Of a stretch of DNA of 64,000 bases, positions 5,777 through 27,883 are shown one piece after another; position 1 is the first letter of the stretch; every line of letters starts with the position of its first letter. The translations under genes and the position numbers were made by a program. Origin of the DNA: an uncultured Acidobacteriota bacterium (lineage in GTDB: Bacteria; Acidobacteriota; Thermoanaerobaculia; Gp7-AA8); the NCBI GenBank assembly GCA_963822445.1, contig CAWGHO010000001.1, positions 1,088,001-1,152,000 on the forward strand, written 5' to 3'. The notes under the pieces are model-generated. The model was not told where the DNA came from. It saw only the letters and a list, made by a program, of their open reading frames with translations, and made no database searches.

Positions 5777-7925
5777 TTACGGCTTGGTGGTGCAGAGGGT
5801 GAAGCTGCCGCTGCCGCTGTACGCGTACACGCGCCAGCGATAGGTGCCGGACGTGCCGCTGTAGGTCACGTTCTCGATCGACGTGGCGCTCTCGCCTGCC
5901 GCGACGCTCGACCAGCTCGCGCCGTTCCACTTCTGCAGATAGAGATCGAAGTCCGGGCCGCTCGGTCCGGTGAGCTTGCCTGTGTGCGAGCCGCTCACGC
6001 TGGAGGTGTACTGCGCCGAGTACCAGTTCGCGCCGGTACCGGACAGCGATCCGGAAACGCTCGTGCAAGCTGCGGCGCCCGTGTACGTCGCGCGGAGCGT
6101 GACGCTGGAGTACGTCGAGTAGGCGTACAGGCTGATGTACCAGTCGCCCGCGACAGGATTCGTGACCGAGACGGTCTCATTGTTGCCGTTGAGATACGGG
6201 CGGTAGTCCCACACGGACGAAGTCGGCTGCGCGCCGCGCTTCACGTACATGTCCGCGTCGCCGCTGCCACCCGACATCACGATGTCGAGCTTCGTCTGTC
6301 CCGAAGGAACGGCGATCTTGTAGTGCTTCCAGGCGCCGGTGGAGGCGCCGATGCCGGTGACGGCAACGCCGTTGGTCAGCGTAGTCGTGCCCGTGCCGCC
6401 GCCACCCGGGGTTCCCGGAACGCCGACAGCGTCCCAGCCCTTGTGCACCGCGGCGGCCGCGGTGGCGCCGTAGAGGTCAGTCGCCGCCTGGGCGGTGGCG
6501 GTGCGCGCGGCCTGGAAGTTGGAGGAGGAGGTCATGTAGACCGTCAGCGCGCGATACCAGATCTTCGCGGCCATATCGATCGAGGTCATGGCCGTGGCGC
6601 TGAGCGCGGGAACGCTGACCGTGGTCTTGCCACGCGGGTGCGTTCCGCCGGTGACCATCAGCTTCCAGGCGAGGTTGGCGATGCCGGAGTTGAGGTGAAC
6701 GCCGCCGTAGTCACCGGTGCCGGTGTAGCGGGTCGGGTAGTAGTCGTAGGAGCTGCCGTCGGCGATGGGGTCGTTCATGTAACGGAGCGCGTCCCCGGCA
6801 GTGCCAGGCGTGGTGATGTCCTCGCCGACTTTCCAGGTGTCGCTGCTCACAGCGCCGTCTTTCCACGCTTCCACGGCGGCGGCCATGATGTCCGACGTTC
6901 CTTCGTTCAGCGCGCCCGACTCGTTCGAGTACGTGAGGTTGGCGCTGTAGGTGGTGACGGCGTGCGTGAGCTCGTGCGCACCGACGTCGAGCGCGTTGCC
7001 GAGCATGTAGAACTGCGATCCGTCGCCGTCGCCGTAAACGAGCTGGCTGCCGTTCCAGAAGGCGTTGTTGTAGTTCACCTGATGGTGAACCGTGGTCTTG
7101 ATCTGCGCGCCCGCGTTGTTGAACGAGTCGCGGTTGTGCACGTTCTTGTAGTAGTCGTACGAGGTGGCCGCGTGCGCATGCGCCGTGGAGATGGCGCTGT
7201 CGGTGGTCGAGCCGCCGGTCTCCGTCAGCACGAGCGTGCCCGGGAGCGAAGAGCTGTTGTTGCCGTTGTAGGTGGCCCGGTTGCGAGCGCGATGGATCTG
7301 CGCGTCGCGCAGCACGAGGTCGCCCGTGACCGCGTTCGCGTACACGATGTCGCGCTGCTCGCCCTGCTCGTCGATGTATTCGATCGTGCCGCGCCACGCC
7401 AGGTACGCCGAACCTTTCTCGGTGGCGACGTAGACCAGCGCTGCCCGCACGTCGTTCCAGCGGCCGCCGGCGATGCCGGCCTGCGAAGCGGCCTGCTCGA
7501 GCGCGGCCCAGCCGTTGATGGAGGGGTTCCGCGGCAGATCATGGTCCGGCGCGAAACGGCCGTTCGATCGCGTAGACCTTGCCGCTGCCGTCAGCGTGAA
7601 CGATGTACTCGGCGCCGTAGACCGGCAGTCCGCGCAGACGCTGCTGCAGGCGGACGTGGGTGTGGCCGAAGTTGTCCTTCGTCGACCCGATGGCCTCGAA
7701 GTCTTCGGTGCCCGCGCCTCCGAGAAGGGCGCGCTGCCCTCTCAGAAAGTCGGCGGCGGCGTTGCTGGTCGCACCAGGGCCGAGCTGCCCCAGCTCGCCC
7801 GTGACGAACGTCGGAACGCCCCTCGCGTCGGTGTCGGTGATCTTGATCTTGCTCTCGGAGGAGGGATTCTTGGCGAACGCCATCGTGGCGGTCAGAAGCA
7901 GTGAGACCCACAGTGTTTTTTTCAT
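5777..7925 (-). CDS. M4 (thermolysin-family) pre-pro-metallopeptidase with C-terminal PPC-type domains, one apparent indel near 7565
   Basis: Signal peptide MKKTLWVSLLL, FTP propeptide, NAFW, HELTH, GALNEG and GVHLNSG. Removing one base near 7565 joins the two ORFs. Confidence 0.9.
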
Positions 7926-8078
7926 GTCCGTCCTTTTTTTCTTTCGAAGGCCGGGCGGACCCAATGGCAACGCGCGCGCCACCACGTAAGTCATTGATTC
8001 TATTGAAGAGTGAATCGAAATGGATCAGTGAACGACCCGTTACGGAGCCAATTTGGGGTCAAAAACTGAGCAGGCGGG

Positions 8079-22314: not shown

Positions 22315-22318
<4 letters not shown>
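21542..22318 (-). CDS. trpA: Tryptophan synthase alpha chain
   Basis: [22 protein letters not shown] and VGFGIS. Confidence 0.96.
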
Positions 22319-23489
<1,171 letters not shown>

Positions 23490-23493
<4 letters not shown>

Positions 23494-24086
23494 GCGGCCC
23501 GCACCCTTTCCAACAGCGCGCGCACTTTGTCGGGATCCTTCCTGCCCGGCGCGGATTCGACACCGGAAGCGACGTCGATCGCGTACGGCCGCGCAACGCT
23601 GATGGCTACGCCGGCGTTCTCCGCGGTGATCCCGCCGGCGAGGAAGAATGGTTTCTCGCGGACGTACGCCACGAGCTCCCAGTTGAAACGTCTCCCAGTG
23701 CCGCCGGCCAGCCGGTCATCGAGCGTGTCGAACAGCAGATACGCCGCGCGCGTCTTCACCTCGGGCACCTCTTCGCCGACGCGAATGGTCTTGATCACCG
23801 AAACGCCGAGCTGCGTCATGTAGTCATCCGACTCCGATCCATGAAGCTGCACCAGATCGAGCCCGACCTCGGCGATCGCCCGCTGCACCATGTCCAGCGG
23901 CTGATCGCGAAAGACGCCGACGATCTTCGGCCGCGGATTTCCGAGGGCGGCCACGATCTCGCGGGCGCGGTCGTTCGTCACGCAGCGAGGTGACTCGGGC
24001 ACGAAAATGAGGCCCAGATAATCAGCGGACGAGCAGAGGATGGCGTCTTCGGGATTCGTGATTCCACACAATTTGATTTTCGTCAT
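23490..24086 (-). CDS. trpF: Phosphoribosylanthranilate isomerase
   Basis: KLCGIT, QLHGSE, GGTG, LAGG and DVASGVE. Confidence 0.95.
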
Positions 24087-24862
24087 GACTTCACCAGTTC
24101 CCGCACTGCGGCGGCGCGATCATTCTGTCGCAGGAGCGACTCCCCGACGAGAAACGCATTGAATCGCGCCGCGCGCAGGCGATCAACATCGGCGCGCGTG
24201 CGGATGCCGCTTTCGGCGACCCGGATCGCTTCTGTAGGCATGAGCGTACTCAGACGTTCGGACGTTCCGAGATCGACGTGAAAGTCGCGGAGATCGCGAT
24301 TGTTGACGCCGATGACCCGCGCGCCGGCTTCGAGGGCGCTGGCGAGCTCCGCCTCGTCGTGCACTTCGACGAGCGCATCGCAGCCGTAGGCCTCGAGCAG
24401 GAGGATGAATTCGAGCATGCGCCGGCTGTCGAGCAGCGACGCGAGCAGAAGAATCGCGTCCGCACCCGCGGCGATGCCGCGCATGATCTGCGAAGGCTCG
24501 ACGACGAAATCCTTCATCACCGCCGGCAGTCCGCTCGCCGCTTTTGCGCGGGCAATCCACTCGATGTTTCCCTGGAAGAAGTCGGGCTCGGTGACGATGG
24601 AGATTGCCGCGGCGCCGCCGCGCGCGTAATCCGCGGCGATGGACTCGACGTCGGGATTCGGAGCGATCGGACCGGCCGACGGCGACGCGGCTTTGATCTC
24701 GGCGATGACGTTGATTCCGGCGCGAGCGAGCGCCTGCCGGAACGCGAAGGGGCTTCGCTGTGCGGCACGATCCATCGCCGCGCGGCGCGTGTCCTCGACT
24801 TCCATCGGCTCGTTGCGAAGGCGTTCGCGCGTGCGCGCGACGATGTCGTCGAGAACGGTCAC
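24083..24862 (-). CDS. trpC: Indole-3-glycerol phosphate synthase
   Basis: IAEIKAASPSAG, KDF, GVNNRDL and AESGI. Confidence 0.95.
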   Translation of the reverse strand: MTVLDDIVARTRERLRNEPMEVEDTRRAAMDRAAQRSPFAFRQALARAGINVIAEIKAASPSAGPIAPNPDVESIAADYARGGAAAISIVTEPDFFQGNIEWIARAKAASGLPAVMKDFVVEPSQIMRGIAAGADAILLLASLLDSRRMLEFILLLEAYGCDALVEVHDEAELASALEAGARVIGVNNRDLRDFHVDLGTSERLSTLMPTEAIRVAESGIRTRADVDRLRAARFNAFLVGESLLRQNDRAAAVRELVKS

Positions 24863-25884
24863 GAGGCGCCTCCCAGCTCATTGGTCGCATCGACGAGCTG
24901 CTGCAACTTCTCGCGCGCCGCACCGCTCGCGATCGCATCCCGCGCCATGGTTACTCCTTCGCGAATCGAAGTCGCGAGCCCGGCGACATACAAAGCCGCG
25001 CCGGCGTTGGCGATGACCACATCGCCTCGCGCACCGCTCTCGCCGGCGAGGACTTTGCGGGCGATCTCGGCATTCGCCTTCGCATCGCCGCCGCTCAACT
25101 CCTCGATCGCATGCGTCCGCAATCCGATCTCTTCGGGCGTGACGTCGTACGAGCGCACCTGACCGTCGCGCACTTCGCACACGTGGGTCGGCGCGGAGAC
25201 GGAGATCTCGTCGAGGCCGTCGCGGCTGTGCACGACCATCGCGTGATCTGCGCCGAGAGCCGCAAGCACGTGCGCAACGGTTTCGACGAGCCGGTCCGCG
25301 TACACGCCGAGGACCTGTCGCCGCGCGAACGCGGGATTGGTGAGCGGGCCGAGGACATTGAAGATCGTGCGCAGGCCGAGCTCGCGACGAACCGCGGCCA
25401 CCGCGCTCATTGCCGGATGAAGTTTCGGCGCGAAGAGAAAAGCGATGCCGACCCGGCGAAGGACTGCCGACATCCGTGAGGCATCGAGATCGATGTGCAC
25501 GCCCAGCGCGCTGAGCACGTCCGCGCTGCCGCAGGCCGAGGAGACGGCACGATTGCCGTGTTTGGCGACGTTCGCGCCCGCAGCCGCGGCGACGAGTGCG
25601 GCAACGGTGGAAATGTTGAACGTGCCGCGACCATCGCCGCCTGTGCCGCAGGTGTCGACGAGGTTGTCCCGATCGACATCCAGAGGCGTGACCCGCGCGC
25701 GCATGGCCAGGGCCGCGCCTGTAATCTCATCCGCGGTCTCCCCTTTCATTCGCAGCGCCACGAGCAGCGCGGACTTTTGAACATCGCTCGCTTTTCCATC
25801 CATGACGTACGCGAAGACTTCATGCATCTCGTCGCGGCCGAGATGGTGGCCGTCGACGGCGCGTTTGATGGCCTGCTCGATCAT
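24859..25884 (-). CDS. trpD: Anthranilate phosphoribosyltransferase
   Basis: DTCGTGGDG, NIST, AKHGNR and RTIFNVLGPLTNP. Confidence 0.96.
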   Translation of the reverse strand: MIEQAIKRAVDGHHLGRDEMHEVFAYVMDGKASDVQKSALLVALRMKGETADEITGAALAMRARVTPLDVDRDNLVDTCGTGGDGRGTFNISTVAALVAAAAGANVAKHGNRAVSSACGSADVLSALGVHIDLDASRMSAVLRRVGIAFLFAPKLHPAMSAVAAVRRELGLRTIFNVLGPLTNPAFARRQVLGVYADRLVETVAHVLAALGADHAMVVHSRDGLDEISVSAPTHVCEVRDGQVRSYDVTPEEIGLRTHAIEELSGGDAKANAEIARKVLAGESGARGDVVIANAGAALYVAGLATSIREGVTMARDAIASGAAREKLQQLVDATNELGGAS

Positions 25885-26468
25885 CGAAGGCCTCCCAGAA
25901 AATTGAGAATCAATTGATCGCCGCCGGACGTGCCGTAGGACTCGGGATGGAACTGGATTCCGAACACAGGCCGGCGCCTGTGCGAAATCGCCATGATCGT
26001 CCCATCCTCGGTCTCCGCGTCGACAGACAGATCGTCCGAAAGCGTCTCGCGCGCGACAACGAGGGAGTGATACCGCGCGGTGTGCATCGGCGCCGGACAT
26101 CCGGTGAACAACCGCTCGCCGCCGTGGCGCACTTCGCTGACCTTCCCATGCACCGGCACCTCGCCGCGCATGACCCGAGCCCCGAACGCCTCGGCAATGG
26201 CCTGATGTCCGAGGCAGACGCCGAGGAGAGGGATCGCGTCGTTGATGCGAATCAGATCGATGCAGCGGCCGGCGCGTGACGGCGTGCCGGGACCGGGCGA
26301 GATGACCAGCGCGCGAGGCTTTTCGGCGATGAGCGCGGCGGGATCAAACGCGTCGTTGCGCACGACGCGGACACGCTCGCCGGAAAGGCGCTCGATCTGC
26401 TGAACCAGGTTGTAGGTGAAGGAGTCGTAATTGTCTACGACTGTGATTGGCGAGTTACTCGAGCCAAA
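25881..26468 (-). CDS. trpG: Anthranilate synthase component II (glutamine amidotransferase), no in-frame canonical start
   Basis: ITVVDNYDSFTYNL, SPGPG, GVCLGHQ, RYHSL and QFHPES. No ATG/GTG/TTG lies upstream of the DNYDS motif before an in-frame TGA. Confidence 0.9.
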   Translation of the reverse strand, partial: FGSSNSPITVVDNYDSFTYNLVQQIERLSGERVRVVRNDAFDPAALIAEKPRALVISPGPGTPSRAGRCIDLIRINDAIPLLGVCLGHQAIAEAFGARVMRGEVPVHGKVSEVRHGGERLFTGCPAPMHTARYHSLVVARETLSDDLSVDAETEDGTIMAISHRRRPVFGIQFHPESYGTSGGDQLILNFLGGLR

Positions 26469-26523
26469 GCGACGAGCCGGCGACGTGACTCATCGGCTCG
26501 TTTGTCTCCTGTGGGTTCGACAT
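26455..26523 (-). CDS. Upstream ORF MSNPQETNEPMSHVAGSSLWLE (candidate frame-0 part of trpG)
   Basis: ATG 9 nt after a TAGACT -10-like box. A single Trp codon in CTT-TGG-C context, and TAA three codons later. Confidence 0.55.
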   Translation of the reverse strand: MSNPQETNEPMSHVAGSSLWLE

Positions 26524-26548
26524 GGGACGGGAAGTCTAGCACGGGGCC

Positions 26549-27883
26549 TCATGCCTTTTTCATAGGCACCAGTTCCCCCGGCTCGTCGTCCTGCATCCGC
26601 AACCGGAGCTTCGACGATTCCAGCGGCGTTGCTTCGAGCTGGTCGAGGTTGCCGAGGTCCTTGCCGCTGCCGGCCATGCGCTGGAGCTCTTCCCCTTTCG
26701 GCCAGAGGCGGGTGTCGATCGAACGGATGGTCTCGTTGTACTTCTCGACCGTCTTGCCCAGCCGGCCGCCGACCTCGGAGATGAGGTCCATGATCCTCAC
26801 GAAGCGGTTGAACAGCTCCACCGCCGCGTCGTGCATCTTCTTGGCGTTCTCCTCGGTCTTCTCCGCCTTCCAGCTCGCGGCAACCGCGCGCAGCAGCGGG
26901 AGGAGAACCGTCGGTGACGCGAGGAAGATCTTCCGCTCTGCCGCGTACTCGTGCAGCGTGAGATCGGTGGACAGCGCGGCGGCCAGGAAATGCTCGCCGG
27001 GGATGAACATCACCGCGAAATCGAGCGTCTCGCCGACGCTCGCCTGATATTCGCGTTTCGCCAGTGCGTCGACATGGCGGCGGATGTTCTTCGCGTGCTG
27101 TTCGAGAAACGCCCGTTTGCGCGCTTCGTCGGGCTCGTTGCAGGCCGCGATGTACTCGGTGAGCGGCGCTTTCGCGTCGACAGCGATCACGCGCTTGTTC
27201 GGGAGATTGATCACGACGTCGGGGCGGATGCGGCGGCCTTCATCGGTCATGAAAGTCTGCTGCGCATCGAAGTCGTGGCAGTACTCGCTCATGCCCGCGA
27301 GCTCGATGCAGCGCTTGAGCGACATCTCGCCCCAGGAGCCCTGGACCGTCGGAGACTGCAGGGCATTGGCGAGGCGCGCCGCTTCGCGTTGCGCGGATTC
27401 CTGCGTGACGAGCAGAGAGCGAAGCTGCTCCTGCAGGCCTCCATAACTCTCCTTGCGCGCATGCTCGCTCTTCGTCACCTCGGCGCGGTACGTCTCGAGC
27501 ATCTCCCTGACCGGCACGAGCACGCCGTCGAGCGTGCCGCCGACCTGGGTCTTGTTCGACTGCACCAGCGACTCGCTGACGTCCTTGAACGCTTTCTGCG
27601 CGAGCACGGCAAAGCTCTCTTCGAGCTGCTTGTGATTGGCGAGGAGCTTCGCCGCTTCCTCGGCGCGCGTTTCGGCTACGGCGCGTTCCTGCTGGGCCTC
27701 TTCAACCCGGCGCTGCATCTCGGCCCGGGCGGCGTCGCTTTTCTCTCGCTCGGCGTGCTCGAGATCGCGCTCGGCAAGGGCCCGCTGCGCTTCGGCGCTC
27801 TTCCTCGCGCTCCCGACCACCCATCCCACGATCGCACCAATCATCAGGGCGATCACGCTCGAAAACAGCACCGTGATTGTCAT
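26549..27883 (-). CDS. rmuC: DNA recombination protein RmuC
   Basis: N-terminal TM and coiled coil, GSWGEMSL, RPDVVINLP, VDAKAP, MFIPGE and ASPTVL. Confidence 0.92.
   Translation of the reverse strand: MTITVLFSSVIALMIGAIVGWVVGSARKSAEAQRALAERDLEHAEREKSDAARAEMQRRVEEAQQERAVAETRAEEAAKLLANHKQLEESFAVLAQKAFKDVSESLVQSNKTQVGGTLDGVLVPVREMLETYRAEVTKSEHARKESYGGLQEQLRSLLVTQESAQREAARLANALQSPTVQGSWGEMSLKRCIELAGMSEYCHDFDAQQTFMTDEGRRIRPDVVINLPNKRVIAVDAKAPLTEYIAACNEPDEARKRAFLEQHAKNIRRHVDALAKREYQASVGETLDFAVMFIPGEHFLAAALSTDLTLHEYAAERKIFLASPTVLLPLLRAVAASWKAEKTEENAKKMHDAAVELFNRFVRIMDLISEVGGRLGKTVEKYNETIRSIDTRLWPKGEELQRMAGSGKDLGNLDQLEATPLESSKLRLRMQDDEPGELVPMKKA

Follow-up and report, generated by a model that had tools for sequence, protein, structure and literature searches.

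A candidate tryptophan-sensing +1 ribosomal frameshift at the head of the trp operon in uncultured Thermoanaerobaculia

The trp operon of an uncultured member of the Acidobacteriota (class Thermoanaerobaculia) begins with a trpG gene whose reading frame lacks a conventional start and coincides with the +1 frame of a short leader containing a single tryptophan codon. We analysed this locus in a 64,000-nucleotide stretch of DNA, referred to here as the window (positions 1,088,001 to 1,152,000 of contig CAWGHO010000001.1, assembly GCA_963822445.1), together with the corresponding loci of related genomes. The comparison suggests that a programmed +1 ribosomal frameshift, in which the Trp codon serves as the sensor, probably gates translation of the operon. 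That a +1 shift at CTT-TGG would be needed to reach trpG, as the preliminary description of the window had proposed, is strongly supported by the relatives, in which the +1 phase is fixed, the linkers vary and the arrangement has several origins. The ribosomal slip at CUU, its efficiency and a dependence on Trp-tRNA are inferred, as is the coupling of translation down the operon.

The leader and trpG reading frames in the window

All features listed for the window are located on the minus strand; those of the proposed device are as follows.

26533..26541, minus strand: extended -10 promoter box TG-C-TAGACT (TAGACT at 26538-26533, TG at 26541-26540), called from the window sequence and its conservation
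26455..26523, minus strand: leader open reading frame (ORF) in frame a, 22 codons plus TAA, encoding MSNPQETNEPMSHVAGSSLWLE followed by the stop, with one Trp codon
26472..26501, minus strand: 5' hairpin with an 8-base-pair stem (26501-26494 with 26479-26472) and a 14-nucleotide loop, its 3' arm ending on the first base of the E-site codon TCG
26490..26492, minus strand: TGA that closes the trpG (+1) frame 5' of the shift site, seen in the window sequence
26463..26469, minus strand: proposed shift heptamer CTT TGG C, in which P-site CUU would move to UUU, A-site UGG would be left unread and GGC would be the next codon
25881..26468, minus strand: trpG (anthranilate synthase component II), in the +1 frame from TTT GGC, predicted product MSNPQETNEPMSHVAGSSL-GSSNSPITVVDNYDSF...

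The leader ORF starts at ATG 26523 and ends CTT TGG CTC GAG TAA, with CTT at 26469-26467, TGG at 26466-26464 and TAA at 26457-26455. Relative to this ORF, trpG is read in +1; after the closing TGA its frame reads VTSPARRFGSSNSPITVVDNYDSF... and contains no ATG, GTG or TTG before GTG 26363, which lies 24 codons past the D of the DNYDSF motif and hence inside the conserved domain, and no Shine-Dalgarno (SD) sequence for trpG is present in the window. The encoded protein nevertheless scores 184.6 bits against TIGR00566 (NCBIfam trpG/papA; cut-off 121.05) and retains intact catalytic motifs, namely GVCLGHQ (Cys motif G[VI]CLG) and HPES. In the most similar profiles, position 2 falls on I15 of the window TrpG, encoded by ATC 26447. 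The start-less trpG frame, its in-frame TGA, the 22-codon ORF with its CTT TGG CTC GAG TAA ending, the TAGACT box (26538-26533) nine nucleotides before the leader ATG and the exact entry into trpG upon a +1 shift at CTT-TGG had all been pointed out in the preliminary description, and each is borne out by the sequence.

The position of the -10 box implies a leader mRNA that would be leaderless or nearly so, starting at the leader AUG or a few bases from it. Eighteen codons would then be translated before tRNA-Leu reaches CUU in the P site, with UGG in the A site. When charged tRNA-Trp is plentiful UGG would be read, the stop two codons on would be reached and no TrpG would be made; when it is scarce the A site would remain empty, allowing tRNA-Leu to re-pair on UUU and Gly-tRNA to read GGC, such that the ribosome would enter trpG and produce the predicted junction peptide ...SSL-GSSNSP.... 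Translation of trpD, C, F, B and A would follow via stop-start overlaps. The hairpin that abuts the E-site codon probably aids the forward slip, in the place that the SD sequence occupies in prfB.

Leaders of related genomes

For comparison, 116 trpG loci with 420 nucleotides of upstream sequence were assembled from 111 genomes of the family (class Thermoanaerobaculia), including the genome of the window itself, and from five outgroups. Eleven further family genomes gave no TrpG match at E 1e-50, and one (G041), cut at a contig end, was left out; two rows were dropped, one a duplicate (L001, identical to L002) and the other truncated at the N-terminus (L026 in G019). The counts include three unpublished genomes (L010 in G002, non-fused; L057 in G086, fused; L112 in G138, no leader), without which there would be 33 fused, 56 non-fused and 24 loci with no leader (n=113), leaving the conclusions unaffected.

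A homologous leader, consisting of a TAnnnT box, an ATG (GTG in two cases) and a short ORF ending (S/C/R)-Leu-Trp-Leu, is found in 91 of the 116 loci. CTTTGG is present in all 91, although the leaders were defined by this sequence, and is absent from the more distant genera of the family and from the five outgroups among these loci. The TAnnnT box lies 6-12 nucleotides 5' of the leader ATG in 89 of the 91, mostly as TGnTAnnnT, the remaining two being the leaders with GTG starts. The leaders fall into two classes. In the fused class, to which the window belongs (34 of 116 loci, 12 genera), trpG lies in the +1 frame of the leader and begins Phe-Gly-Ser; the codon at the position where relatives start is CCA, CCC, CCG, CCT, GCG, GCC, GCT, CGC, TCC, TCG, TCA or CAA, and in 33 of the 34 the trpG frame has no ATG, GTG or TTG earlier than codon +9, counted from the D of DNYDSF. 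In the 57 loci of the non-fused class a frame-0 stop lies 1-4 codons past TGG, while reading in +1 can continue for 15-73 codons (median 20). The +1 ORF of 54 of them ends about 25-57 nucleotides (mostly 36-46, with one outlier at 156) before an ordinary trpG SD and ATG, GTG or TTG. The other three (L061 in G083, L065 in G130 and L088 in G117) form a coupled subclass, whereby the +1 ORF stop and the trpG start overlap as ATGA; the +1 ORF of L061 has no further Trp codon.

Among the remaining 25 loci, those inspected have trpE directly upstream of trpG, or a trpG start without a leader. One locus from the window's own genus (L015 in G020) has lost the whole leader; its trpG starts with TTG about 60 nucleotides past the upstream stop and 8 nucleotides behind a TGTTAACACT box, and may itself be leaderless. 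Another (L041 in G064) lacks the CTTTGG leader and has a TGG TGA TGG-like remnant, a different upstream region and an ordinary ATG start; it may represent a decayed relay leader of the non-fused kind discussed below.

Among the fused loci, shift site and DNYDSF are separated by 22, 25, 31, 34, 37 or 40 nucleotides; linkers vary from 0 to 6 codons, and the +1 phase is preserved in 34 of 34 loci; the same phase is spread 20, 27 and 10 among the non-fused leaders (n=57). The 5' regions of trpG in relatives, which the preliminary description had singled out as a check, thus keep CTT-TGG in 91 of 116 loci, with all 34 fused examples in +1. A wider search was made by exact pattern, requiring a 9-base core followed by a DNYDS coding motif within 13-31 nucleotides, across 185,579 species genomes and across metagenomes; it gave 38 matches in the former and 92 in the latter, 80 of these 92 being listed. 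The leader signature was assessed in frame 0 without regard to the gap, and the matches that carry it are in +1 phase in 33 of 33 genomes and, among the matches listed, in 72 of 72 metagenome sequences; among the matches listed these comprise seven linker lengths and at least 58 distinct junction sequences. Matches without the signature, which derive from other phyla or unrelated genes, are in phase in 3 of 13 cases among those listed, as chance predicts. Other phyla contributed five pattern matches, none with a leader, four of them out of frame and the fifth with its own start. The fixed +1 phase is therefore not explained by a start codon that is used independently of the leader.

Phylogenetic analysis of TrpG showed fused and non-fused loci to be interleaved. 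Parsimony gives a provisional 12 changes of the fused state, at least three of which are forced by well-supported branches; for example, fused and non-fused sisters occur in one genus (Shimodaira-Hasegawa-like approximate likelihood ratio test, SH-aLRT, 98) and a single fused genome is nested among non-fused ones in the genus of the window (95). Every fusion is in +1 and never in frame 0, and therefore the +1 frame would already have been translated from CTT TGG beforehand. CTT accounts for only 18 of 212 Leu codons in trpGDCFBA and rmuC, yet it is invariant at the shift site. Changes in trpG of the fused lineages number 8347 at third codon positions versus 3368 and 2900 at the others, a pattern which indicates that the gene is under purifying selection.

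A hairpin comparable to that of the window is found in the long leaders (at least 15 codons before CTT), where its 3' arm ends 2-3 nucleotides before CTT. In an alignment of 73 distinct long leaders, which left out identical sequences, leaders of fewer than 15 codons and the two with GTG starts, pairing holds in 79.1% of cells, versus 35-52% when the partners are slid by 1-3 columns. One pair covaries between C-G (32) and U-A (25), and none of 500 shuffles reaches this score. The conserved peptide E-N-E in the leader is attributed to this RNA constraint. The preliminary description had been troubled by the lack of a prfB-type SD: the absence stands, with GGCTCGTCG immediately before the window CTT and only an AGGAG about 37 nucleotides upstream, but the conserved hairpin next to the E site answers the worry in part. 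In published 70S experiments (PMC6321510), a hairpin of this kind is able to take over the role of the SD. The minimum-energy fold of the window's leader also has a second, small hairpin, UUGGC...GCCAA (26441-26468, minus strand), which starts inside the shift site, and similar UUGGC-type pairings seem possible by eye in some other fused loci. This hairpin was considered as a 3' stimulator and set aside, as its position would fall inside the ribosome.

The +1 frame would also be read in the non-fused relatives. Of the 118 TGG triplets that lie past the site and ahead of trpG, 109 are in this frame, and 56 of the 57 +1 peptides have 1-3 Trp close to the C-terminus (e.g. ...RWRPWRWCL and ...SPRWCSA, each followed by the stop). 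No start codon precedes the first downstream Trp codon in 36 of the 57. In 52 of 54 non-fused loci, single-sequence folds predict pairing of the trpG SD with a segment farther 5'; this segment either immediately precedes the +1 Trp codons or spans the +1 stop, where a ribosome stalled at those codons could reach it. A consensus fold of 18 genomes of one genus contains the same SD pairing, with almost no covariation. It is likely that these loci work as a relay, in which a starved ribosome would shift at the first Trp codon, stall at the next and thereby unmask the trpG ribosome-binding site. The start-less +1 frame would thus have three outputs: a relay to second Trp codons, a stop-start overlap with trpG, and direct fusion to trpG as in the window, the last of these having arisen repeatedly and independently. 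The suggestion that the device acts in place of classical trpL attenuation fits this picture, in which the relatives keep a second, attenuator-like stage that has been lost in the window. On balance we lean towards the view that this family of soil Acidobacteriota within the Thermoanaerobaculia controls Trp synthesis by a natural hungry-codon +1 frameshift, aided by the hairpin and feeding these three outputs.

Alternative explanations

Several observations weigh against a Trp-sensing frameshift. The evidence comes from sequence alone, all of the genomes being metagenome-assembled genomes (MAGs) of uncultured organisms, titled as Thermoanaerobaculia or Acidobacteria, and UGG could be merely a constitutively slow codon, given a single tRNA-Trp gene. 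The relatives are non-independent samples, and the TrpG tree derives from a quick search of 187 columns of one short protein, such that the number of fusion events is uncertain. Covariation in the hairpin resides mainly in one pair and possibly reflects few evolutionary events; the window leader has an unexceptional fold (z = -1.52), and the hairpin is absent from 11 of the 91 leaders, all of them fused and with only 6-8 codons before CTT, which leaves no room for it. It is therefore not essential. No SD-like stimulator is found within a few bases 5' of the window CTT. A strict scan of the window region yields no two-hexamer sigma-70 site, and for this reason the promoter is called from conservation alone. 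Finally, indels may occur elsewhere in the assembly.

The strongest alternative is a +1 frameshift of set ratio with no response to Trp, in which the slow UGG codon, CUU-U and the hairpin would give a fixed, low level of TrpG and control would be exerted elsewhere, for example by feedback inhibition of TrpE. The genome has a single tRNA-Trp gene, the fused type retains no second sensor, and trpE is located in another operon without such a leader, all of which would suit this explanation. On the other hand, the A-site codon is that of the operon's own end product in 91 of 91 leaders, the non-fused relatives add 1-3 Trp codons in the +1 ORF beside a predicted SD-sequestering pairing, which is a hallmark of Trp sensing, and it is hard to see what a fixed shift would offer beyond a weak start codon of the usual kind. 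We regard a set ratio as unlikely.

It is considerably less probable that no frameshift occurs and that trpG has a non-canonical start of its own at or close to ATC 26447, which ribosomes might use directly after terminating on the leader. This ATC is exactly at the second codon of the relatives, after their ATG, GTG or TTG; it is a rare start in table 11, and the leader stop is 7 nucleotides 5' of it in the window. However, the codon at this position in the fused class is ATC in 25 loci, ATT in 2, CTC in 5, CTG in 1 and GTC in 1, which therefore does not represent a conserved alternative start, and neither CTC nor GTC is a start in table 11. There is no SD, and the leader stop varies in position from 1 to 12 codons past TGG. 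The codons that follow the shift are always GGC TCN, with Ser encoded by TCG (19), TCC (8), TCT (4) or TCA (3), so that Gly-Ser 5' of the ATC position is kept with synonymous changes. Nor does initiation of this type give a reason for the fixed phase of the fused loci (34/34), genomes (33/33) and metagenome matches (72/72 among the matches listed), the non-fused loci being unphased.

A change of frame outside normal decoding, that is, by transcriptional slippage on a T run, RNA editing or a tRNA that reads four bases, appears very improbable. The site does contain a run of three Ts, but efficient polymerase slippage needs homopolymer runs much longer than this. The 54 tRNAs identified by Aragorn in the genome of the window all have ordinary three-base anticodons, none with an unusual anticodon or anticodon loop, and an independent DNA contig agrees with the assembly.

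The CTT-TGG/trpG layout is real and no assembly artefact. The independent contig, a public one from run X1 (329 nucleotides), matches 26255-26583 with 0 differences and 0 gaps, although this run may be the source sample and hence provides an independent assembly rather than an independent sample; a contig from a relative (run X4) aligns across 26431-26543 with 7 substitutions and no gap. We take the decisive evidence against assembly error to be comparative, as the same frame relationship is present in 33 other genomes, many of them in hundreds of contigs, and in at least 72 metagenome contigs. The assembly of the window's genome (6.0 Mb) has a completeness of 94.7% despite comprising only 3 contigs, and a thermolysin-like M4 peptidase on the minus strand looks split between an ORF at 7539-7994, with the FTP propeptide motif only, and an ORF at 5777-7450, which starts at profile position 19 and holds the catalytic domain. 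This split is probably due to an indel, either an assembly error or a real pseudogene, and the remark in the preliminary description that indels occur elsewhere is plausible in view of this gene near 7.5 kb. For trpG itself an assembly indel or a decaying pseudogene can be dismissed on sequence grounds, as the gene is intact in its catalytic motifs and in its pattern of purifying selection.

Operon context, host machinery and known systems

The genes downstream of trpG and the gene upstream of the promoter are arranged as follows.

24859..25884, minus strand: trpD, its ATG at 25884 overlapping the trpG stop (ATGA); TIGR01245, 422 bits
24083..24862, minus strand: trpC, GTGA overlap with trpD; identity confirmed by family search
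23490..24086, minus strand: trpF, ATGA overlap with trpC; identity confirmed by family search
22315..23493, minus strand: trpB, GTGA overlap with trpF; TIGR00263, 600 bits
21542..22318, minus strand: trpA, ATGA overlap with trpB; TIGR00262, 248 bits
26549..28507, minus strand: RmuC-domain gene, context only and outside the device, its stop 7 nucleotides before the promoter TG

The linkage of trpG-D-C-F-B-A by ATGA and GTGA overlaps had been noted previously and holds, as do the gene identities. Likewise, no terminator had been seen between the leader and trpG, and a terminator scan of 25800-26800 found no such site. An Rfam scan of 25500-27000 with E up to 10 returned only chance-level matches and no trp leader. 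The trpE gene is located outside the trp operon (C1:1579361-1580740 of the same genome), where its ATG overlaps the stop of an upstream gene (ATGA), presumably shikimate dehydrogenase (aroE) as judged from its translation, and where no such leader is found; trpE would therefore not be under the frameshift gate.

The prfB gene of this genome contains ...GGAGC TAT CTT TGA C..., with the main frame in +1 and GGAG four bases 5' of CTT (C3:1082700-1082900). This organism therefore already makes use of tRNA-Leu slippage on CUU-U. Upstream of prfB there is also a run of repeated GCAGAATG/CATTCTGC-like units that forms an inverted repeat. The Aragorn set includes one tRNA-Leu(GAG), one tRNA-Leu(UAG) and one tRNA-Trp(CCA). 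A scan of the genome for the same architecture (an extended -10, an ATG, a short ORF in which CTT precedes any codon beginning with U, and a long ORF in +1) gave three matches, namely the trpG leader and two that are unconvincing (+1 open for 106 and 27 codons); none of them points to a version of the device for Phe, Tyr, Cys or Ser.

Laboratory work on hungry-codon frameshifting goes back decades. If the proposal is true, this locus would be the first natural instance of amino-acid-limited frameshifting as a regulatory sensor, and would add a fourth logic of trp control to those of repressors, attenuators, and TRAP or T-box systems. It offers more than 100 natural variants in three architectures, with the non-fused relatives as an internal control, and the element is short, some 70 nucleotides from leader AUG to shift site, which would suffice for transfer to a reporter in a tractable host. 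Confirmation would establish a new principle of control for amino-acid operons and a natural case of a 5' hairpin stimulator, and would draw attention to a class of genes in MAGs to which gene callers assign wrong starts or which they report as broken. A passage of the 2016 review of recoding (PMC5009743) considers that hungry-codon shifts could make trans-frame proteins in starvation, but that "no examples are known", and we found no published description of such a trp frameshift system, including since that review, in the full-text literature (subscription-only papers were not covered).

Among known systems, antizyme resembles the proposed device in that a +1 frameshift is both sensor and effector in a metabolite feedback, as the relevant passage of the same review describes. 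It differs in being eukaryotic, in sensing polyamines via the nascent peptide and a stop codon, and in its opposite logic, whereby a high level of the metabolite raises shifting. The CCC UGA site of pheL in E. coli (Gurvich et al. 2011) shares with the window a frameshift inside the leader gene of an amino-acid operon. In pheL, however, the shift is at a stop codon and not at a codon for the sensed amino acid, no structural gene is entered, and the frameshift is apparently incidental according to its authors and to the part of the 2016 review that treats it (PMC5009743). The yeast Ty1/ABP140 heptamer CUU AGG C has the same P-site CUU, followed in the A site by a sense codon that is decoded slowly, and its first codon in +1 is likewise GGC; in the review's account this heptamer by itself shifts efficiently in yeast (40% or more; PMC5009743). 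This system is eukaryotic and depends on a constitutively rare tRNA-Arg, setting a ratio of products and not acting as a metabolic sensor.

Classical trpL attenuation shares with the window a short leader peptide with Trp codons, on which the position of the ribosome reports, or in the window would report, charged tRNA-Trp, and the non-fused relatives alone have a predicted SD-sequestering pairing beside Trp codons, like that of ribosome-stalling translational attenuation. In contrast to trpL, the window has one Trp codon, no terminator, no Rfam leader match and neither a leader-trpG spacer nor alternative hairpins; its trpG has no start of its own, and in the relatives the sensing Trp codons lie in a start-less frame that would require a +1 shift.

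A close experimental parallel is provided by Huang, Cho and Chang (2018), who report (PMC6321510) that a stable hairpin at the E site stimulates +1 shifting at CUUUGA on E. coli 70S ribosomes to about 60% of the SD effect, and that it also does so with UGU (Cys) in the A site made hungry by lowered cysteine. CUU U, a hairpin by the E site and a U-starting sense codon, made hungry in their case and proposed to be so here, are common to both cases. Theirs is an engineered in vitro Cys reporter, whereas the window has a natural, conserved element on the matching biosynthetic operon.

The most extensive likeness is to prfB, for which the available text of the GeneTack survey (PMC3711429) gives the consensus CTT_TGA_C from 413 sequences; the motif is present in that text, and "tryptophan", "trpG" and "anthranilate" do not appear in it. 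Both prfB (CUU UGA C) and the window have CUU U as the start of the slip, a C after the A-site codon and, as proposed for the window, a slow A site as the sensor; in both, a short frame-0 ORF precedes a functional protein encoded in +1 without its own start, at the very beginning of the gene, and this arrangement is conserved in relatives. They differ in that the A-site codon of the window is the sense codon UGG and not UGA, with the frame-0 stop two codons later, and in that the sensed molecule would be charged tRNA-Trp and not a release factor. Close to the 5' side of CTT the window lacks an SD and has instead a hairpin next to the E site, and the product is an enzyme of the pathway that supplies the sensed factor rather than the sensed factor itself. 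The device in the window would thus act like prfB without the stop codon and the SD, and would therefore constitute a +1 frameshift gate linked to an amino acid through a sense codon, the sense-codon counterpart to prfB if confirmed.

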